Source of the DNA: Escherichia phage AV124 | Strand: one strand, 5' to 3' | DNA: 64,000 nt | Sequence record: OR352954 | In this document: piece by piece, positions 18,862-42,320 of the stretch | Position numbering within the stretch: the stretch's first letter is position 1 | Layout: each line of letters starts with the position of its first letter | Notes under the pieces: generated by a model | What the model was told of the DNA's origin: nothing | Databases searched by the model: none | The model's input: only the letters and a program-made list of their open reading frames with translations | Position numbers and translations under genes: made by a program

Positions 18862-19695
18862 TTAGTTGCCGGACAAAGAGTCTTCCAAGGCTGAAAGGCG
18901 CTTGTCAAGATCCTCCTGCACCGCTATTGTTGCTCTAAGTATCCAGAATAAAAGCTCTTCTTTTCTGAAAGCGTACTCCTCGCCTGCTGGGTTATCACCA
19001 TTAGCTTCCCACTTATCATAGCAAAATGCTGAGTATTTCGTCCAATCAAGACCATACTTAAGCATAATCTTGATAGCATCTTGTACAGTAGGTCCCGAAT
19101 GGAGTCTAGCTAAACCTTTTTCAGAAGAGTATTTTGCCAACCATTGCCAGACAGAGTCTAGTTTTCCAATCTCATAGAACGCTTTTACTTCTGCGGTTGA
19201 AATTTGGCGAAGGTTGGTTTTCTTTTTCTTATTGGAAGTAGAAATCACACTATTCACAGCATAAACTTGATTCCAACGAAGAGCTGTAGTACCGTTTGAA
19301 ATAAAGTTATCCCGCTTAGGGTAAAATGCTGCTAATGATGTAGATATCTGGACACCATAAGATCTTTGCACTGGGCTTATAGATATTGTATCTGCATATG
19401 TCCCAACTTCGTTTCCAGAGGTGGCAAAATAATACCCATTAGATAGATTTTGCCACTTGTTTGAAAGACTGTCCAGAACTTGCTGGACAGTTGATCCTGA
19501 ATGTGTCCCGACCAAAGAGGCCCCTGAGACATCCATGATATCACCTTTCTTTAAGATTCCAATATCAGAAATGAACTTACTAATAGTGGTTTTTTCTGTA
19601 TCAACAGATGACTGGATGATTAGCTCATCAGTATCTGATACCAACACCTTATCAGAAAGATTTCTTATCTTAATGACTGGCAAATCAATTGACAT
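18862..19695 (-). CDS. tail fibre with C-terminal intramolecular-chaperone-like domain
   Basis: Start at ATG 19695 (MSIDLPVIKIRNLSD); C-terminal region resembles the self-cleaving chaperone domain of phage fibres. Confidence 0.45.
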   Translation of the reverse strand: MSIDLPVIKIRNLSDKVLVSDTDELIIQSSVDTEKTTISKFISDIGILKKGDIMDVSGASLVGTHSGSTVQQVLDSLSNKWQNLSNGYYFATSGNEVGTYADTISISPVQRSYGVQISTSLAAFYPKRDNFISNGTTALRWNQVYAVNSVISTSNKKKKTNLRQISTAEVKAFYEIGKLDSVWQWLAKYSSEKGLARLHSGPTVQDAIKIMLKYGLDWTKYSAFCYDKWEANGDNPAGEEYAFRKEELLFWILRATIAVQEDLDKRLSALEDSLSGN

Positions 19696-19756
19696 ATTAA
19701 CCTCGTTTTTAAGTCCCTCGTGACACGAAACGGATTTCTTTAAAGCCCCGTAACCG

Positions 19757-20557
19757 TTAGGCTGCAATCTTGCCAATCCGCTCCATCAGATATGCAAAAA
19801 TCACATCCTGGGCACTAGTCCCGTAGGAATACAGACCAGGTATCACTATTGCATCTGACAGTACAGACGTCAGAGGTGAAACAGACCCATCTCCTGCTCC
19901 GCCCAAATTCATTTTTTGAGACGTGGTGTATTCAGGTATCGTATAGCCAGTCACCTGTCTGGTTGTTACCGCAGACTGGTCAGACCTTTGGTATGCAATA
20001 GCGTAAGCCCCTGTATTTTTGTTAGAACACATAACCACGGCGCAAAACAGACCAGCCCCCATATTTGATGGAGTGAAAGGGACATCTGGCTGTGTGCCAC
20101 CATTAAAAAACACAGGGAAACTACCAGATGAAGTTGTGCGAATACCAACCCCATGAGGTGTTGTTTCTTGGGTTGCGATGGCTATCCTATCTGTCGGGGC
20201 TGATGATAATGCACCTGAAGGCAACTGGTAGATGAAGGCGAACGTATTGATGTTTGCGTCCATAACCACTTCGGTATCACCAGCCATACCGGATGCACCG
20301 GAGAAATTAATCCCCTGCAAAACAGGCCCATTCAGCTTTGTGGATGGCTCGAGGCCTGACTGGGAATTGAATTTTCCACCATCTACCCGGTTTGCGAGTG
20401 CGGAAACTTTTTGCCCGATCCCTAGTTTGATAAAATCAACCGTTGCAGGCGACCATATAGTGGGGTTTAAATTTGCCAGTGCTATTTCCGCAGCTGTCAA
20501 AGAATAAACGGGAAGCAATGGGTTATTTAACCCTGTGTCAGTGTAAAGAAGGCGCAT
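19757..20557 (-). CDS. structural protein (266 aa)
   Basis: ORF with RBS; Gly/Ser/Thr-rich. Confidence 0.45.
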   Translation of the reverse strand: MRLLYTDTGLNNPLLPVYSLTAAEIALANLNPTIWSPATVDFIKLGIGQKVSALANRVDGGKFNSQSGLEPSTKLNGPVLQGINFSGASGMAGDTEVVMDANINTFAFIYQLPSGALSSAPTDRIAIATQETTPHGVGIRTTSSGSFPVFFNGGTQPDVPFTPSNMGAGLFCAVVMCSNKNTGAYAIAYQRSDQSAVTTRQVTGYTIPEYTTSQKMNLGGAGDGSVSPLTSVLSDAIVIPGLYSYGTSAQDVIFAYLMERIGKIAA

Positions 20558-20569
20558 TTTTTTTTATCC

Positions 20570-23092
20570 TCAGAAAACGTTGATTCGAAAAGCCGGTAAC
20601 CAGTCGTAGAGGGTTACAGATGTATCGTATACCCACGCGATTCCGGCAGAAGATCTTACACACCCTCGTGCGCCCAAGGTCTTACCAGAAGGTTTGACAG
20701 TCGCACCGCTTTGAAGAGGATTTTCTACTGTCGCATAGGAAACCCGTCCAAAACGGCCAGTAGGAGCAGATGCTAGGTTAATCAGCACGCCCTTTCCGTC
20801 CGAGCTGATCGCTATGCTAGAAATGGCAGGGGGTGACGCCGATTCATCTGTGTAGTTAAAACCGTAATTTGCCAGGCCATCAATACTAATATTGGTCGTG
20901 TCTATCACCAGGTTGGTATACGAAGGGATGTTTATTTGTATTTGCGTGGGGGAGTTCCATACAAAACCATTCGGAACCATACCATACCAGCCGCTCGTAA
21001 ACCACTCCTGGATAATTGCTCTTGCCACAGCCGCTCCACGTTTATTTTGTGCAGCACAGGTGAGGTGCAAACCGTCCGTAATAAAATCGTACTGATACAA
21101 GGTATTTACGCAACGGAACTGCTCACGGCCATGTAGGTTGTTTACTGACATCCTTACACGCTGGCCTGTAAACGCACCATGCCCGTCATTGACATACCCC
21201 AGCTGGGTGATGGCGATGATCGGCGGTTCGTTTTGACCAGTCCTTGCCATGATGTCACTGATGACTTGCCTCTGGTACTGCTTCATCCTAGACTCATACA
21301 TCCCTTCCCGCAACCCAGACCAGTCCTCGTCTGACTCTCCTTGCATCCAGTCAACGCAGAGAACAATCGGCAGCCAGCCACGCGCTTTACAGGCCGTCAC
21401 GCAGTCTTCGATTGAATCCAGCATGTATTGGTACACGGCATTACCGCGTTTTTGGTACTCGTATGCCTGCCCGGATTGGGCACACACGATTGATAGTGTG
21501 CGCGGCATGATTCCGGTAGCTGCAGCCATATCGCGAATGAAGGTGTTTGCCAAGCCAGATGCTGCAGTCTCCTTATCAGTGCCGCTTACTGCCTCAACCA
21601 GTGGCACCAGAGTAGTGCTGCGTGCCCCCGTTCTCCTGACCCCGCCAGATAGCATAAACGCGTTATCAGGATAAACTGGCGTCGACGCGATAATGGTTTG
21701 ATCCGCATCTGGGCAATAGCCGCGTGCATTAGACTGCCCGGCAGTTACAAAAATGAAGCATACCGGAACATCTTCTGAATACGGGTAAGCCGTAGACCCT
21801 GACAAATGGAGTCCATACTCAGGGAGGATAGTCATATCATCGCCGCCACCCCCTCCACTCTCCTGGTTAACAAGAACCAAGCCGCTATCGGAGTAGATCC
21901 AGTGATGGCCGCCAACCGTGTAAGCCTCAACGATCTGGTTTGTCGTGGCGTCAACGATCATGCGCCACACCTTTTCACCGCCGATAAATTGCGGCACTGC
22001 CCCCTCAGTTCCGAGCGCATATAACTCAGCCTCTTGCGGCGTGAGCACTTCATAATATTTTCCGTCAGGACCAATTTGTATTAACCGCCCAGCGGCGTTT
22101 AAAAAAGGAGCCACTCTTTTTGTCTCCGGGTCATAACCCGCCAGGGCCACACTGTTTGATGATATCTGGTATGCGTAGTCGTCACGAGCTATCAACCTAT
22201 CTGTCGGATTAAGAACCCCTGAATTATTCACATACTCATTTGCTAGGGTTGAGTCTGAAGAATTTCTAACCCAACAATGTGCCCCATTTGGGATATTACC
22301 TGCCGCAACCTCATTCTGGGCTACCGCCAGCGATTCATATCCCCGGATGGTATTTATAATGGCCCCTGTTCCTGGAACAGCCGCGACTTCTTGAGCAACC
22401 CCTGCATTATTCTTGTACACTTTGAACGCTACAGAGCTACCACTTCCCTGAGGCACTTGGAAATATTGTCCATCCGTAGTTGCAGCAAGACCTTCACTAA
22501 CAGATGCGTATAAGTTTCCCAGCTCAGAGGCCTGCAATGCATATGCTTGTGCCTCATCTCTCGCATCTTCTGCTTGGTCTTTTGCCTCAACTGCTTCGTT
22601 TTTGATTTCTGTTACTTCATCGAGCAGACTCAAACCACCAACAGTTACCCATGCAGATGCTGAAACACCACCTGTTGTAGACGGGGTGGATTTTTCGGGT
22701 ACTGTCTTGGGGAATGTCCCTCCCCATGTGTAACATTGCGCTCCTGCAATATGCCAAATAGCATCGTTGGCATAGGTTAATGTTGCACCATCTTCGAAAG
22801 AACCTTCTACCAAAGTTAGCCCAAGATCATGAAGTGCTCTTCTCCATAATTCTCTCTCATTTGCACGGGCAGTGTCAAGACTTTGTTGGACATGTGTCCC
22901 ATCAGAGGTCCCTATAAGGGAGGCACCGCCATCCGCCGCCAAATCCCCTTTGTTAGCCAAGTCTAAGTCGGAGATAACCTGGGAGACAGTGGCCTTTTTG
23001 GTCTTATCTGGTTGTTCTACAACAAGGTAGTCGTCTCCGACCACTTGGGTTGCGGAGGGTAACTCCGCAATTTTAATTGTATCAAAGGCCAT
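20570..23092 (-). CDS. tailspike with SASA-type carbohydrate esterase domain
   Basis: Start at ATG 23092 (MAFDTIKIAELPSAT...) with RBS GGAGGG; shared N-terminal anchor motif; esterase signatures FVTAGQSNARG and WMQGESD. Confidence 0.65.
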   Translation of the reverse strand: MAFDTIKIAELPSATQVVGDDYLVVEQPDKTKKATVSQVISDLDLANKGDLAADGGASLIGTSDGTHVQQSLDTARANERELWRRALHDLGLTLVEGSFEDGATLTYANDAIWHIAGAQCYTWGGTFPKTVPEKSTPSTTGGVSASAWVTVGGLSLLDEVTEIKNEAVEAKDQAEDARDEAQAYALQASELGNLYASVSEGLAATTDGQYFQVPQGSGSSVAFKVYKNNAGVAQEVAAVPGTGAIINTIRGYESLAVAQNEVAAGNIPNGAHCWVRNSSDSTLANEYVNNSGVLNPTDRLIARDDYAYQISSNSVALAGYDPETKRVAPFLNAAGRLIQIGPDGKYYEVLTPQEAELYALGTEGAVPQFIGGEKVWRMIVDATTNQIVEAYTVGGHHWIYSDSGLVLVNQESGGGGGDDMTILPEYGLHLSGSTAYPYSEDVPVCFIFVTAGQSNARGYCPDADQTIIASTPVYPDNAFMLSGGVRRTGARSTTLVPLVEAVSGTDKETAASGLANTFIRDMAAATGIMPRTLSIVCAQSGQAYEYQKRGNAVYQYMLDSIEDCVTACKARGWLPIVLCVDWMQGESDEDWSGLREGMYESRMKQYQRQVISDIMARTGQNEPPIIAITQLGYVNDGHGAFTGQRVRMSVNNLHGREQFRCVNTLYQYDFITDGLHLTCAAQNKRGAAVARAIIQEWFTSGWYGMVPNGFVWNSPTQIQINIPSYTNLVIDTTNISIDGLANYGFNYTDESASPPAISSIAISSDGKGVLINLASAPTGRFGRVSYATVENPLQSGATVKPSGKTLGARGCVRSSAGIAWVYDTSVTLYDWLPAFRINVF

Positions 23093-23290
23093 TTTTTGCC
23101 CTCCAAGAAGTTTATTTAGAATAGTCAATGATGACTGTCATATAATTGTTAAAGCTTTACATGGCAGGGGTGGGCTATCATACCCGCAACGGTAGGCTGT
23201 TCTTCCCTAACCGTTGCAGGCCGTAGTTAGTGTGAATTGTTGCGTATGTCATTATTGTGGTCTATTTATACAAACAATAATATTCATAAA

Positions 23291-25057: not shown

Positions 25058-26701
25058 TCATGTTCCAAATCCAACAATTCTATATTTCAAGGATGAGTTG
25101 TTGGTTGTGATGGAGACAACAACACCACCATCGGTTGTCCCATCTACTGTGGACAAAGTAAAGAGTCTTGAACCACCTGTCGTAGAACCAGTTCCTGGTG
25201 TCTGGTCATGATTACCGATAACCGTATAAGTGACCACCCCTTCCCGGTTAGTAGCAATCAGTTCAACAGCCTGCGCCCAACTTGTTTGAGCAGAGGTCCA
25301 AACATCGATAAAAATTTTCTTGGTTGTCCGGTTCGGTATGGTGATAAGTTGAGTATCTCCGGCGGCATAAAGCCCTTTAGTCCTAGTGTGATATTCGATC
25401 CATTGTAGATTATAACCCGGACTGGAAGTTGTCGGTTCTTGAGAGGTGTAGGACCATCTTGTTACTTCCCCGACTTGGCTAACATGCTCAATTTTTCTTG
25501 AAAACTTATCTCTCAGCACGAAACTATAAGACCTCACACCATTGCTTTGGAGGTCTACGTCAGCCTCTTTAGGATTTGGGTAGCTCCCTGTACCACCTAC
25601 TTCGAACAGATCTTTTTTGCCAGCATCTGGCGCAATCCATCCATTTTTATCCATGTTGGCAAAGAATTCCTCAAATGCAAGCCAATACGATTCTTGATGC
25701 CCCAGAAGGTTGGGGTGAACAGTTTGCCCACTGTTAAACAATGAGCTAATGCCATACTTGGCAAGGGCATCGAACCAATATTTTTCGACATCGATAAGAA
25801 CACAACCCATTTCTACAGCAATCTGGCGAATAGCATCGTTTCCTCGCAAGAAACGATGGCCCACCGTAATGGTCACACCATTCCATACTAAATCTACATT
25901 TGACTCGGCAGCGGAAGGGATGATACTATCATCAGAAACGGGGGCCGGGGAAGGGGAAGGCCATACTTGGGCGACACCCGGAGGCATACTCCAAGAATAA
26001 ATGGGGATATTAGGATGTGGGGTGGTAGTAAGAATAACGTCACCACCTGCATCCCTAACATTTCTGATTGCAGCTCTTAATCTTTGCTTAAACCCATTCT
26101 CGTTGAAAGTCTGACCTGCGTTGTAGTTTGCTGTGGGAAAATCATTCATCCCATACACGAATAAGGCAATATCTGGATATGTCCCAGTAGCAACAACAGC
26201 AGGCCATTGGTCAACCAAAAAATTATTGATCGTTGACCCGTTTACAGACCTATTTACAAAGGATAGTGGATATATCCCACCTTTATTAATGGATTTGTTA
26301 AAGAATTCAAAGAATTTAGCCACAGGAGCTTGGGTGGCAGGATCTGGTAATGTTGCACCATTCCCCACAGAAGACCCAAATCCGTACAGTAGAAACTGCG
26401 TCTGCCCAGAGGCACCATGACGATAGGCGGTTAGTTTGTTAATAAGTTGGGGAAAGAGTGCCTGTGAATTCCCCGAAGCAGCCCTAATGGATTCCTCAAC
26501 TGTTTTACCTGTGGCTGTCCCTATAAGGCTCGCACCATCATCATCAGCAAACATAGTTTCTCTGGATATATCCATATCAGAAACTAGTTGACTTAAGGTT
26601 GTCTTTTTCGTAGCATCTACTTGCTCCACAACAAGCAGGTCAGTCCCTGCAAGTGTAGAGGATGGAGGAAGTTCCGAGATCCTTGTGGTTGGTATTGACA
26701 T
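25058..26701 (-). CDS. tailspike with SGNH/GDSL-type hydrolase-like domain
   Basis: N-terminal anchor MSIPTTRISELPPSSTLAGTDLLVVEQVDATKKTT; candidate SGNH blocks (YGFGSS, YGMND); RBS GGGAGAA. Confidence 0.55.
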   Translation of the reverse strand: MSIPTTRISELPPSSTLAGTDLLVVEQVDATKKTTLSQLVSDMDISRETMFADDDGASLIGTATGKTVEESIRAASGNSQALFPQLINKLTAYRHGASGQTQFLLYGFGSSVGNGATLPDPATQAPVAKFFEFFNKSINKGGIYPLSFVNRSVNGSTINNFLVDQWPAVVATGTYPDIALFVYGMNDFPTANYNAGQTFNENGFKQRLRAAIRNVRDAGGDVILTTTPHPNIPIYSWSMPPGVAQVWPSPSPAPVSDDSIIPSAAESNVDLVWNGVTITVGHRFLRGNDAIRQIAVEMGCVLIDVEKYWFDALAKYGISSLFNSGQTVHPNLLGHQESYWLAFEEFFANMDKNGWIAPDAGKKDLFEVGGTGSYPNPKEADVDLQSNGVRSYSFVLRDKFSRKIEHVSQVGEVTRWSYTSQEPTTSSPGYNLQWIEYHTRTKGLYAAGDTQLITIPNRTTKKIFIDVWTSAQTSWAQAVELIATNREGVVTYTVIGNHDQTPGTGSTTGGSRLFTLSTVDGTTDGGVVVSITTNNSSLKYRIVGFGT

Positions 26702-36117: not shown

Positions 36118-37614
36118 TTACACTCCTGCTGTTACTTGTCCGCTGGAAGAAGTAGACCCGGTTTTGTCTAGCAGAACAGAGATGCGAATCTTGACGAAAT
36201 GCAAGGAACTGTTGTAGACTAACTCTACCTTAACATTGTTAAGGGTACGAGATGCAAGGTCGTTAGATGGGATGCTTGCACGAAGCGGAATTGTTACAAC
36301 CGGATCGTAGAACACCTTGTTGACGGAATCATATCCGGTCAAAATAGACCCATTAGTGATACCGACGTTCAGAGGACTGTTCATCAGGACTGCTTTTAGG
36401 TTCGGCATATCATCATCGCTCATCTTCATGGAAAGGCCAAGATTAGAACGGCGAGACATATATGCGAAGATACTCTCTTCACTTCTGAATTTCAGCCAGT
36501 GTCCGAAACGAACTACGTCAACATACTGACCGGAAGCACACTTACCTTCCCAGAATGCACCAACACCATTAATCATACGATAGAAGTTCAGGTTCTGTCC
36601 CCAAATTGTTGGGCGATCGGAAGAACTGAGTGTTGGAGCAACTACGCCAGGCATTGTCTTCAGGTGAATAGAATCACCATATGAAGGATCATTAGAAGCC
36701 ATAGCCCCTATGATTCCTCCTTCGGAGAATGCACTATCCGCAAGAGGGTCGTACATACCAATACTGGTATCATATTGGAGAGCTTTTAGCTGATTAGCGA
36801 TAGAATTGCCATCAACAACCAAGGATAGTTGGTCAGCTGTTGAATATACATGCAGCTTATAATTAGCAGATGCATAAGCGGCTGCACCAAGAATCGCAGA
36901 TGCAATATGTTGCTCTGTACTCAGGAAATACCAGTTGTTATTTGCGGTTTCAATCTCCGGGAGAATTCCGCTAACTGTTTCCGTAGAGGTATTTGTAAGT
37001 GTACAATTACCATAATCGATACCGATGCTGAATGGCTCGCCGATAACATCAGAAGATGTTGCCATAATGCCCTGGTCAGATTCGGTTGTAACCACCTCGT
37101 CATTGTTAGTCGCCAGCAGAGAGCCGTCGCCTTTCGGGGTGATTGTTACAACACCAGCGGTAGCTACTGCACCGACAATTACGTTAAGCGTGGTATCAGA
37201 GTTGATTGCAGATGCTAGGGCTGTTGCAATACTGTCTGGCGTAGATGCGGCAGTAACAGGAATAACGATGCTTTTAGTATATGCGCCTGCTGCAACGTTG
37301 AAACTTACCGGGTTATTAGGATCTACGTTTGTCTGCCCTGTGAAATTGATAACTGTTGATTCCCATGCTTGTCTTCCGATCATAAGCGCTTGGGGGCGGA
37401 AAGTCCCAGCAAAGGCTTTTGTCGCAAAAGTATACGCAGGGGAACCTACAGCGAAACCATCCGCAGCGAGTTCATCCAGATCTGTATATGTACGTACTCG
37501 TTCTGGGAAAACGTTGTGAATTGCGATAAATAGAGGGGTTTCAAACCCTACGGTGTCGATTGGTTGTGTCCCGAGAACAACCGTTACGTCAACAACCTTA
37601 TCATTATAAGCCAT
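36118..37614 (-). CDS. tail sheath protein (498 aa)
   Basis: Size, composition and position upstream of tube; RBS GAGGAAA. Confidence 0.6.
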   Translation of the reverse strand: MAYNDKVVDVTVVLGTQPIDTVGFETPLFIAIHNVFPERVRTYTDLDELAADGFAVGSPAYTFATKAFAGTFRPQALMIGRQAWESTVINFTGQTNVDPNNPVSFNVAAGAYTKSIVIPVTAASTPDSIATALASAINSDTTLNVIVGAVATAGVVTITPKGDGSLLATNNDEVVTTESDQGIMATSSDVIGEPFSIGIDYGNCTLTNTSTETVSGILPEIETANNNWYFLSTEQHIASAILGAAAYASANYKLHVYSTADQLSLVVDGNSIANQLKALQYDTSIGMYDPLADSAFSEGGIIGAMASNDPSYGDSIHLKTMPGVVAPTLSSSDRPTIWGQNLNFYRMINGVGAFWEGKCASGQYVDVVRFGHWLKFRSEESIFAYMSRRSNLGLSMKMSDDDMPNLKAVLMNSPLNVGITNGSILTGYDSVNKVFYDPVVTIPLRASIPSNDLASRTLNNVKVELVYNSSLHFVKIRISVLLDKTGSTSSSGQVTAGV

Positions 37615-39680: not shown

Positions 39681-39804
39681 TTTCGCTCCTTCAAGCTCTT
39701 CTATTTATCAATATCTTATCATAGAACGTCGATTTTGTCATCAAAAACACTTGACATCGTGGAACAGGGTGCTATTCTCAAAGAAAATTATTGAGGAGAA
39801 TCCC

Positions 39805-40203
39805 ATGAAAGCAGTAATAGCCGGTGTTATCACAGCCATCGTTGTCTCGGGTGGACTTATCTACTTTATGAAAACCAACCCCAATATGAACAAATTCGAC
39901 GATGTTTCTTCAAGCTGGTTGTCGGCTGAAGAAAAAACAGAGGCCATTCATCGGATTGCTGGGATGAAATGCGATACAGAATTCAGAAAGGCATTCATTC
40001 CCGGCACTCTGACGACGCAGACAGGTATGTTAGATGAGATGGAAGAACAAGAAGATAGTTTCCAAGTAATGAGAAATATGGGGATAGTGAACGGTACTGT
40101 TCTTGCAACAGGAACTTACATCTGTAAATATTATAAGGATGGCCGACAACCTTATCTTCAGGTATCTTTGAAACCGGAGGCGAGACCGCTACTAAAAAAA
40201 TAA
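39805..40203 (+). CDS. membrane-anchored protein on the opposite strand (132 aa), moron candidate
   Basis: Start ATG 39805 with RBS GAGGAGAA; N-terminal hydrophobic anchor; the only plus-strand gene inside the minus-strand structural block; TTGACA about 50 nt upstream; hairpin at its 3-prime end. Confidence 0.5.
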   Translation: MKAVIAGVITAIVVSGGLIYFMKTNPNMNKFDDVSSSWLSAEEKTEAIHRIAGMKCDTEFRKAFIPGTLTTQTGMLDEMEEQEDSFQVMRNMGIVNGTVLATGTYICKYYKDGRQPYLQVSLKPEARPLLKK

Positions 40204-40222
40204 GGCCCCGGAGGGCCTTTAT
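40203..40222. terminator. hairpin between convergent genes
   Basis: GGCCCCGGAGGGCC hairpin followed by TTT. Confidence 0.4.
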
Positions 40223-40223
40223 A

Positions 40224-40520
40224 TTACGCCATAATGCCAGCAGCCTTCAGCTTGGAAAGAAGGGCATTAAAGTCGGTAACCAGTCCAGCTACGTCAGTCG
40301 CCACCGTGTTGGCCTGTGTTTCTGCCATTTTAACACCGCCAACCACAGAAGTGGTTGCAGCCACGGGAGCAAAAGTGGTAGGCTTGCCAGTAATGTCGGC
40401 CCATGCCACAGCTCCACCGCCTGCGACAGCGATTACATCAGCGAAGGAAATAACTCCGCCAGTTGCAAGGTCAATCAGTTTTGTACCGTAGACCAGTCCA
40501 GCTACACCAGATGTTGCCAT
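40224..40520 (-). CDS. small Gly/Ala-rich protein, N-terminal paralog of the collagen-like protein
   Basis: N-terminus MATSGVAGLVYGTKLIDLATGG resembles [23 protein letters not shown] of the upstream gene; RBS AAGGAG. Confidence 0.5.
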   Translation of the reverse strand: MATSGVAGLVYGTKLIDLATGGVISFADVIAVAGGGAVAWADITGKPTTFAPVAATTSVVGGVKMAETQANTVATDVAGLVTDFNALLSKLKAAGIMA

Positions 40521-40532
40521 TTTTCAATCTCC

Positions 40533-41672
40533 TTAGATTGCGGGTAATTGTGTTGCAGATTCAGGTACAACCTGTTCTGCGATTAACAAAATAGTTGAAG
40601 GGATGAATGTTGATCCAACAGCGGAAATCAAACACTGAGTCCCGTTTGTCGCCATATTGCCATTAACATCCACGCTGAACATATTGAGTAAGTTAATTGT
40701 ATCCTGTTGAGATGTACCTTGTACACGAGCTGCCGTTAGTCTGTTACCGACTGAAGGTGGGAAATTTAATTCTATCGCACGGTTACTTGAACTACTCGAC
40801 CAAGTTCCAATCAAATTCAGCTTAAAGTAAACGCTAAAGTTTGAGTTGTATACAATCATCTTATCGACGGTGGTATTGAAGAGCGGAGATAAACTACCGG
40901 AATGGGGTATATTCTTCAGAAGAGTGATAAGATTTGTTTCTGGACCTATCGTTACATCTGTAAGATTTGTCCAAGTAACTTCCACCTTTCTTCTTATACG
41001 AGATTCCGCAGGGGTTCCTGGCTCACCATCATCACCTTTTGGTCCCTCTGGACCCTGAGGTCCAGATGGGCCTTGTGGACCAGCAGGCCCTGTAGGCCCG
41101 ACCGGGCCTGTAGCACCTTGTGCTGCCATTAATGCCCAGTGTGTGGCAGAAGCCGGGTCTCCAGTAGGAGGCACTCCAGTTGACGTCAGTGTGTTGAAAT
41201 ACAATGCCCCGTTGTAAACAGCAGCATCGTTCTCAACATATGTTGTCGTTGAGGAATAGTTACCTTTAAACTCTAGACCCGTAGCCCCAGAAGGTCCCGT
41301 AGGTCCCTGTGGCCCCGTTGGGCCTTGAGGCCCTTGAGGGCCAGTTGGTCCTGCTGGTCCTTCTTCACCTTGAGGCCCTTCCGGGCCTTGAACTCCACGA
41401 GGTCCCTGCGGGCCTTGGGTTCCAGGTATTCCTTGGATTCCCTGAGGACCTGTAGCCCCATCCTGCACATTTATAATCGTTTTTACAGCATCTTGGTCAG
41501 CTGCTTTTAATATCTCTTTACCAATATCAGACGCATCGGTGATAGATTCAACAGTAATCTCACCTGACCCGCCATTCATGATATCATCAAAATCGATCTT
41601 ATTACCAGTCTTCTGACTAACAAGTGTTCTTCCATAAACAACACCAGCTACGCCAGCCGAAGCTATTGACAT
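40533..41672 (-). CDS. collagen-like repeat protein (379 aa)
   Basis: Uninterrupted Gly-X-Y tract ([58 protein letters not shown]) plus a second shorter tract. Confidence 0.7.
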
Positions 41673-41688: not shown

Positions 41689-42222
41689 TTAAGCTGTCAG
41701 CGCTGCCTCAAGATCAGCCAACATGTTTTCGAAGGTCTTGGTCTTCGACAGAGTAACACCTTTGTTTGCTGCGAATTCAGCAAGTTTATCTTTGCTGCCT
41801 TTTTTATCCGCATCATCTCGTAAAGCAGAGGCTTCCGCAATAATTGCTTTCACATCGGGGTTTACTTGCTCATTGGCTTTTGCATTATCTTCTATAACCT
41901 GTGCAACCACGGTTTCTTCAACCTTTTGTTTAGCCACTGACGACTTAACATCAGAAGGTGGTGTAATCTCACCATTAAAGAATACGATAAAGTTGCCCAT
42001 TCTCAGGGTGGAGGCCTTAGTATCTACAGGAAGACCTGACAGGTCTGCAAGTTCCTGGAAGAACTCCATGAAAGAACGAAAAGCCTTCATTTGCTTACCA
42101 AGGGCGAATCCATTTAGGGGTAAGCGGCTTGAAGCACTAATGTTCAATTCGGGAATGTATGCACCAAAGAACTTGAAAAGCTCTACCTTGTTCGGGAAAA
42201 TGCGATAATTTTGATTTGCCAT
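41689..42222 (-). CDS. head-associated protein (177 aa)
   Basis: Start at ATG 42222 (MANQNY) with RBS AAGGAG. Confidence 0.45.
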   Translation of the reverse strand: MANQNYRIFPNKVELFKFFGAYIPELNISASSRLPLNGFALGKQMKAFRSFMEFFQELADLSGLPVDTKASTLRMGNFIVFFNGEITPPSDVKSSVAKQKVEETVVAQVIEDNAKANEQVNPDVKAIIAEASALRDDADKKGSKDKLAEFAANKGVTLSKTKTFENMLADLEAALTA

Positions 42223-42280
42223 AGAATCTCCTTTGATCCTCATAAACCTCTTGACATATAAGATCACTATGCTAATCTTA

Positions 42281-42320
42281 AAATGAAAAAAGGGAGAGGT
42301 GATTAACACCTCCCCCTCTT
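42281..42320 (-). terminator. rho-independent terminator downstream of capsid gene
   Basis: On the minus strand: hairpin GAGGGGGAGGTG-TTAATC-ACCTCTCCC followed by TTTTTTCATTTT. Confidence 0.55.

Follow-up and report, generated by a model that had tools for sequence, protein, structure and literature searches.

A shared N-terminal anchor suggests interchangeable head fibres in the structural module of Escherichia phage AV124

What are the two adjacent genes that stand behind the capsid gene and ahead of the gene for the head-tail adaptor of Escherichia phage AV124, and what is to be made of the likeness between the N-termini of their products? Our study addressed this question in a stretch of 64,000 nucleotides from this phage (sequence record OR352954; the window hereafter), at positions 40224 to 41672. 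A sequence-only reading of the window had placed a collagen-like protein of 379 amino acids (aa), here called A, and a 98-aa protein, B, at this locus and had proposed that both were trimeric head or neck fibres with a common attachment domain. Both open reading frames (ORFs) were present at those positions on the minus strand, and indirect evidence supports the view that A and B are trimeric fibres of the head that share an attachment domain. We consider it probable that A and B are two trimeric head fibres that dock at one virion site through a shared N-terminal module of ~31 residues, referred to below as the anchor.

40533..41672, minus strand: gene A, putative long fibre, 379 aa (ORF; Pfam Collagen and Phage_tail_NK; PHROG tail needle knob / tail fiber families)
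40224..40520, minus strand: gene B, short head-fibre protein, 98 aa (Pfam PF11133 and PHROG head fiber families)

The N-termini of A (aa 1-31) and B (aa 1-29) were found to align over ~31 residues with 14 identities (45 % identity), so that the common N-terminus noticed in the sequence-only reading is real, although the length of ~20 residues given there was too short. The local alignment of the two N-termini scored 80, compared to 33.3 +/- 5.2 for 2000 shuffles, none of which reached 80 (maximum 56). A profile of six anchors was then searched against 1.84 billion representative proteins (expectation value, E, <=1e-3) and matched 32 cluster representatives of 54-587 aa, with the match lying within the first 43 residues in 30 of the 32. 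Distal to the anchor, these proteins carried collagen of varied length with or without an insert resembling a carbohydrate-binding module (CBM), Sf6-type knobs, several unknown globular domains, tail-fibre-repeat-like stretches (no Pfam match) and head-fibre C-termini, the last of which bore one or two W-x-D-I-T-G-K-P-x-x-F motifs. In the whole 64 kb of the window, A and B were the only matches to a hidden Markov model (HMM) of the anchor. A first HMM built from three sequences gave E-values for phiTE-type proteins that were only marginal, and the relationship between the anchor groups was settled by profile-profile comparison (hhalign) with reversed-sequence controls. The Mydo/Seuna-type anchor aligned in register with the group of phiTE pTE217 (9-40 on 9-40; 94.8 % probability) and also matched the group of W70_129 (97 %), compared to <0.5 % for the reversed controls. 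The shared N-terminus is thus a discrete, conserved N-terminal module, which is kept in Mydovirus, Seunavirus, Certrevirus, Henunavirus and Septuagintavirus although what lies distal to it differs. In the papers searched, neither this common anchor nor its modular deployment was found to have been described.

This conservation bears upon the suggestion that the shared N-terminus is a relic of duplication, or a tag for folding, chaperoning or export, and that A is a non-structural or decaying accessory gene without a role in the virion. A is missing from most close relatives and the anchor has no confidently predicted fold, both of which would fit such a history. However, the anchor has been conserved across the five genera from Mydovirus to Septuagintavirus while the parts behind it were replaced, A is intact, with a Shine-Dalgarno sequence and in an operon with B, the protein P0001 is 98 % identical to A over its full length, and anchor-bearing homologues have been detected in purified virions. 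We therefore hold this explanation to be improbable and return to A and B as head fibres, of which the parts are as follows.

41580..41672, minus strand: A aa 1-31, N-terminal anchor (paralogous to B aa 1-29; anchor profile; hhalign)
41460..41579, minus strand: A aa 32-71, Gly-rich hinge and short helical linker (motif in relatives; AlphaFold2, AF2)
41271..41459, minus strand: A aa 72-134, collagen tract 1, 21 G-X-Y triplets (triplet count; Pfam Collagen)
41118..41270, minus strand: A aa 135-185, aromatic-rich CBM5/12-like insert, containing HWALMA (phrog_5073 match)
41010..41117, minus strand: A aa 186-221, collagen tract 2, 12 G-X-Y triplets (triplet count)
40536..41009, minus strand: A aa 222-379, Sf6-type knob (PF16532; PDB 3rwn, 4k6b; AF2)
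40428..40520, minus strand: B aa 1-31, N-terminal anchor, MATSGVAGLVYGTKLIDLATGGVISFADVIA (paralogy with A; anchor HMM; hhalign)
40227..40394, minus strand: B aa 43-98, head-fibre C-terminal domain (PF11133; PDB matches)

B carries the W-x-D-I-T-G-K-P-x-x-F motif at aa 40-50, ahead of its C-terminal domain, and aa 43-98 match positions 222-277 of PF11133 (Phage_head_fibr) with an E of 5e-11 (43 bits; cut-off 24.6). This match covers only the last 56 of the 277 PF11133 positions, and B showed no match to the capsid-binding base at the N-terminus of gp8.5 or to its helix-turn-helix stalk. Among known structures, aa 29-98 of B aligned with residues 27-99 of gp45 from the Shigella podophage B2 (PDB 9D82, chain 9d82_J; E 6.7e-12), and B also matched the crAss001 head fibre (PDB 7QOF; E 1e-6) and phi29 gp8.5 (PDB 3QC7 / 6QVK; E about 1e-5). 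B was found at 90-95 % identity in 29 phage records, annotated as 'head fiber protein' or hypothetical, and is recognisable at full length across Seunavirus, Avunavirus and Henunavirus. By these matches, B is a conserved head fiber of the Vequintavirinae, resident in nearly all relatives and an already annotated kind of protein. The AF2 monomer of B gave a mean predicted local distance difference test (pLDDT) score of 51.5.

A is built differently behind the anchor. Its hinge and linker motif also precedes collagen in P0022 and in L003:6489-7991, and the AF2 model places linker helices at 49-55 and 60-66 with low confidence. The first Gly-X-Y tract was uninterrupted, as the sequence-only reading had described it, but holds 21 triplets (aa 72-134) rather than about 19, and the second, shorter tract that had been noted was confirmed at 12 triplets (aa 186-221). 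Proline favours the X position in both (13/21 and 8/12 triplets), and Pfam Collagen (PF01391) matched A with an E of 4e-15, at 55.7 bits against a cut-off of 27.2, which places it within the family by sequence. Tandem Repeats Finder returned just two weak short arrays in the collagen tracts, and recent slippage or expansion of the DNA was rejected on this ground. Residues 123-219 match phrog_5073 (E 7e-38). The knob matched PF16532 (Phage_tail_NK) with an E of 2.2e-29 (102.7 bits; cut-off 27), and aa 224-367 aligned end to end with the knob of Sf6 gp9 (PDB 3rwn; E 2.5e-28), with 4k6b also matched. In the AF2 monomer of A (mean pLDDT 54.7) the knob alone was confident, with residues 225-370 beta-rich at a pLDDT of mostly 66-93 and a dip to ~52 near 331-342, while the collagen tracts scored <50. 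The proposal of trimeric fibres thus gains indirect backing from the collagen and Sf6-type knob of A (the latter a trimer in 3rwn) and from the match of B to the homotrimeric B2 gp45, and A and B are both probably trimers. The domain content, the paralogy of A and B, the anchor family and the genomic slot described below are regarded as established.

The knob raises the question of whether A is instead a component of the tail, such as a needle tip, baseplate or side fibre, with an incidental likeness to B at the N-terminus. The top family matches of A are 'tail needle knob' and 'tail fiber protein', its homologues in CR8, A7_1 and W70 bear the annotation 'tail fibre' or 'side tail fibre', and tail fibres commonly have collagen and CBM-like modules. 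However, this contractile-tailed phage encodes a baseplate spike of its own and, at other places in the window, six tail fibres, and a different N-terminal adaptor module is common to three of these. A also lacks a needle shaft, as its PF16532 match begins at profile position 34 with collagen upstream. Furthermore, the N-terminus of A is common to head fibres across genera and only to head-slot proteins, and the anchor co-varies with the head genes and not with the distal part. A place in the tail therefore seems to us as improbable as a decaying gene. The more specific candidate of a tail needle was rejected: in tail needles of the P22/Sf6 kind (gp26/gp9), which are encoded in the tail module of a podophage, a tip at the N-terminus plugs the hub and the shaft is a trimeric coiled coil, whereas A has no coiled-coil or needle shaft, carries collagen and a head-fibre anchor upstream of the knob, and lies in the head module of a myophage. 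Sf6-type knobs were also seen in myophages, both T4-like ones (RB43 group, Citrobacter phages) and jumbo ones (PBECO4), for the most part under the annotation 'hypothetical', and other records with such matches include Margaery and Miller. The knob would therefore be a widely shuffled fibre tip and not a speciality of podophage needles.

The tail genes yielded observations of their own. Three of the six tail fibre/spike genes in the window (18862-19776, 20570-23128 and 25058-26701, minus strand) share an N-terminal module that corresponds to the N-terminal part of phrog_23437, which points to a branched system of tail fibres that share one adaptor, a different module from the anchor of A and B. 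The large cassette proteins (875-1266 aa) of phiTE, PVP-SE1, A7_1/W70 and related contigs are absent from the window. Where compared (L006:4386-7685, L008:2737-5493 and L010:3813-7613), these proteins begin MA(D/Q/E)Y(N/E)DKVV…, a start that closely resembles the N-terminus of the tail sheath of the window (36118-37614, minus strand), MAYNDKVVDVTVV, and they might dock by mimicking the N-terminal strand of the sheath. W70_131 has the top spectral count in W70 virions.

Where, then, do genes with this anchor stand, and how did A come to be among them? The region falls within the structural module of a Klebsiella-type, Mydovirus-like myophage (Vequintavirinae). Over 5 kb around A and B it is 95-96 % identical to Klebsiella phages VLCpiM5b, P8734, KpS8 and BIS47 and to Proteus phage Mydo, in an alignment that splits into two pieces with the gap at the site of the 379-aa gene A. 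On the minus strand the order runs from portal, prohead protease-like, scaffold-like, decoration protein (43794-43375) and major capsid protein (MCP; 43354-42341) genes through a Phage_Inh_N-like gene to A (41672-40533) and B (40520-40224); beyond B lie an opposite-strand membrane-protein gene (39751-40203), the head-tail adaptor (39680-39162) and then neck and sheath genes. The location between head-completion and capsid genes given in the sequence-only reading is correct by this order, from the capsid gene to the head-tail adaptor. In all contexts examined, anchor-bearing genes were found between MCP/Inh_N and the head-tail adaptor, often as two or three tandem paralogues: three in L003, two each in L004, L005, L007, L011, L013 and CR8, and one each in phiTE and PVP-SE1, with none in rV5. 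In Mydo and most Mydovirus genomes Inh_N is followed directly by B, a difference of 1146 bp.

Full-length A was absent among 50,697 phage genomes, in which the best coverage was 46 % (VLCpiM5b, P8734 and LNA4). These three phages hold short versions of A (183-210 aa), and in that of LNA4 the anchor is joined directly to the knob. Among 5.8 billion clustered proteins, full-length relatives fell into two clusters only, P0001 (98 %) and P0002 (72 %), and by these searches A is an accessory, rare paralogue of B. A further fibre of 384 aa with the anchor was seen beside a DUF4376 protein in a phage head module on an ENA metagenome contig (L012:4463-11155), which passes directly into bacterial-looking genes (Usp, porin, pyruvate:ferredoxin oxidoreductase); either chimeric assembly or an integrated element could account for the junction.

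The origin of A was examined by comparing the window to VLCpiM5b (L001) and to the Seunavirus-like contig L005. The flanking proteins (MCP, Inh_N, B, adaptor and membrane protein) are 97-100 % identical to those of VLCpiM5b and 41-90 % identical to those of L005, and the anchor of A behaves likewise (97 and 77 %, respectively), whereas the knob is 44 % identical to VLCpiM5b and 91 % identical to L005. The junction between the two histories lies just after the anchor. As the anchor tracks the resident head genes and the knob tracks the other lineage, A is, on these identities, of mosaic origin and arose by module swapping. Such a pattern is that expected of a capsid-specific docking peptide with an exchangeable working end. 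The shared attachment domain that had been proposed is backed by a strictly N-terminal module, many distal fusions, one genomic slot and homology to pTE217.

A and B are also linked at the level of expression signals, for which three further features are needed.

41689..42222, minus strand: Phage_Inh_N-like gene, 177 aa from ATG, first in the unit (phrog_3259; E 6e-62)
42288..42320, minus strand: strong terminator 3' of the major capsid gene (14-bp stem and T run)
40202..40219, minus strand: intrinsic terminator 3' of B (GC-rich stem of 7 pairs, 5 of them G-C, then a T run)

The terminators at 42320-42288 and 40219-40202 therefore delimit a transcription unit of Inh_N, A and B, and the equivalent of the latter is annotated in PVP-SE1 and phiTE. 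The Shine-Dalgarno sequence of A is GAGAGG (41684-41679), and that of B is AAGGAG (40534-40529), which overlaps the stop codon of A; A and B lie in a tight operon bounded by terminators and carrying signals of co-transcription. For the first gene of the unit, the program had called a 206-aa ORF (41689-42309, minus strand) with a GTG start that sits within the terminator at 42288-42320. Because homologues begin MANQNYRIF, for which the corresponding ATG is at 42222, and because the GTG overlaps the terminator, the true start is almost certainly this ATG, giving 177 aa. PF26097 was found in the equivalent genes of other genomes, and the C-terminus of the protein resembles the 'minor head protein inhibitor of protease' family. 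The small membrane-protein gene between B and the adaptor (39751-40203, plus strand) belongs to phrog_11434, of the 'moron' category, and has a bidirectional terminator region in common with B; it is kept in Mydovirus and Seunavirus and is missing at that place in phiTE, CR8 and A7_1.

Do the fibres belong to the head or to the neck? Of the two locations that the sequence-only reading allowed, the head has held up, as B matches capsid fibres placed by cryo-electron microscopy and the genes lie in the head module, and the neck is less supported. A and B could nevertheless be virion fibres of the neck or collar (whiskers, 6-12 trimers), or of another low-copy site, and not of capsid hexamers: their genes directly precede those of the head-tail adaptor and neck, whisker genes are found in the head/neck modules of related myophages (Sf14, for example), and the neck was named in that earlier reading as well. 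However, the phiTE paper is silent on whiskers and collar, and the sole unassigned density that it notes is at hexamer centres (PMC11972413). Virions contain the homologues pTE217 and W70_129 in great abundance, and the C-terminal domain of B matches proteins on capsid faces and not on necks. Taken together, this evidence leaves a neck or other low-copy site unlikely, if somewhat less so than a place in the tail, and the head location is better supported than the neck for both A and B.

By analogy with these homologues, A and B are presumably present in the AV124 virion, and the centre of the capsid hexamers is their most likely site. In phiTE, pTE217 ranks fifth in abundance among the virion proteins and is a putative 'Pagoda' decoration at hexamer centres (PMC11972413). 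The virion proteome of Pectobacterium phage CB7 (Certrevirus) lists a collagen protein, CB7_10, a candidate bearer of the anchor that may instead be the large cassette protein. Several points weigh against the placement of A and B as head fibres at a common site. Virion presence is known for the homologues pTE217 and W70_129 only. The Pagoda assignment rests solely on mass-spectrometry abundance, the density is unmodelled, and AlphaFold gave the phiTE authors no confident model of pTE217 (PMC11972413). W70_129 accounted for 728 spectra from purified virions of Escherichia phage W70 and for a visible gel band, but spectral counts are not copy numbers and the W70 portal (12 copies) also scores high (PMC11370258). 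The match of B to B2 gp45 involves the C-terminal part only, with the anchor outside the alignment, and the AF2 monomers of A and B give no guide to the anchor (pLDDT <50). A is dispensable, being missing from most relatives. Finally, the insert of A (aa 130-190) is not CBM5/12 by the Pfam threshold for PF02839 (14.3 bits against 26.2); its relatives score 16-19 bits to CBM5/12 and have weak precomputed PF02839 matches, and the insert is best described as resembling CBM5/12 only.

If A and B are head fibres with a common site, the B trimer would be the resident short fibre, a stub on the head, and the A trimer an optional long fibre of roughly 35-40 nm, with collagen stalks of about 18 and 10 nm, the small CBM5/12-like insert between them and the Sf6-type knob at the distal end. 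The trimers would most likely dock on the quasi-sixfold axis at the hexamer centre, an arrangement as for B2 gp45 and SPP1 gp12 and as proposed for the phiTE Pagoda, and a single virion would bear a mix of short and long fibres. By analogy with other capsid-borne fibres, A may serve as an adhesin, most likely contacting surface polysaccharide of the host or its environment weakly and reversibly; such weak glycan contacts would raise the encounter rate ahead of tail-fibre engagement. New fibres would arise by recombination just behind the anchor, which would stay matched to the resident capsid while the distal part was exchanged.

A related arrangement was seen in Erwinia phage Hena1, in which the 858-aa 'putative EPS-depolymerase' (exopolysaccharide depolymerase) Hena1_01450 (L018:4314-6890) begins with the head-fibre anchor, MATTGSGGVVYATKLVDLKTKVVIEVSQL…GGG, and adjoins a 96-aa 'capsid fiber protein' (L018:3982-4272) in the same slot as A and B. 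The body of Hena1_01450 matches the tailspike-like structure of WceF (6TGF) with an E of 1.5e-66. Because the anchor stands at its N-terminus and the gene occupies the head-fibre slot, the Hena1 depolymerase may be mounted on the capsid.

A wider proposal, which we regard as possible but rather doubtful, is that the capsid-to-adaptor slot of the Vequintavirinae is a plug-in site, from which host-interaction modules dock at hexamer centres by one anchor of ~30 residues, and that the heads (~120 hexamers) form a second programmable surface for adsorption and enzyme display that contributes to host range. If true, the site would receive collagen/knob adhesins (A among them), receptor binders that resemble tail fibres and the Hena1 exopolysaccharide depolymerase, and the display surface could be re-engineered by swapping whatever comes after the anchor.

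Head fibres and hexamer-centre decorations are already known and are usually treated as single fixed proteins. What is new here is one docking module combined with distal parts of the receptor-binding type that are exchanged between phage genera, together with a therapeutic-type Klebsiella phage lineage that has both a short and a long fibre, which suggests a phage head fitted with interchangeable adhesion fibres. If confirmed, this would open a way by sequence to the phiTE Pagoda protein, which is unmodelled, put right the many annotations as 'tail fibre / tail needle knob', suggest that capsid-borne adhesins, and possibly depolymerases, affect adsorption in capsulated hosts, and offer a small anchor peptide for protein display on such capsids.

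In comparison with known systems, a close structural counterpart to the body of B is B2 gp45, a 99-aa homotrimer at quasi-sixfold axes of the capsid (PMC11654681). The two proteins are alike in length (~99 aa) and align over the body (27-99 on B 29-98), whereas the N-terminal ~26 residues of gp45 do not align and B2 is without a long paralogue of the same N-terminus; B2 itself belongs to the N4-like podophages and has a T=9 capsid, unlike the myophage studied here. The head fibres of phi29 and crAss001 are dispensable trimeric capsid fibres that are thought to help attachment (PMC7602432). The last 56 residues of B match the C-terminal end of phi29 gp8.5 and of crAss001 gp21/gp29; however, the phi29 fibres stand at quasi-threefold positions, and A resembles the phi29 and crAss001 fibres in nothing except the anchor of B. 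No head fibre is reported in the phi92 and Pakpunavirus structure papers.

Nearer relatives share the anchor and the slot. pTE217 is, like A and B, a Vequintavirinae protein with a homologous anchor, encoded by the last gene ahead of the terminator and adaptor, but its distal 130 residues are unrelated. W70_129, CR8 gp011 and A7_1 gp112 follow the plan of A throughout, with anchor, collagen, CBM-like insert, collagen and a globular C-terminal domain in the same slot; they differ in belonging to a divergent anchor subgroup, in a C-terminal domain that is not the knob and in their annotation as (side) tail fibre. The trimeric Sf6 gp9 / HS1 knob (PF16532; 3RWN, 4K6B) aligns end to end with that of A, although the Sf6 knob tips the coiled-coil tail needle of a podophage and that of A tips a stalk of collagen that is joined to a head-fibre anchor and encoded among the head genes of a myophage.

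SPP1 gp12, a collagen-like trimer, attaches reversibly at the centres of capsid hexamers; it is a very short protein and is not known to carry a distal globular domain. Compared by function alone, it is the closest functional analogue for A as a collagen fibre on a capsid face. The phi29 head fibres, SPP1 gp12 and T4 Hoc provide precedents for the weak, reversible glycan binding proposed for A (reviewed in PMC7602432). The head spike fibre of RcGTA, which is mounted on the capsid and binds the capsular polysaccharide of the recipient (PMC10218006), offers a precedent for A as an adhesin, in an unrelated particle and with a sequence unrelated as far as tested.

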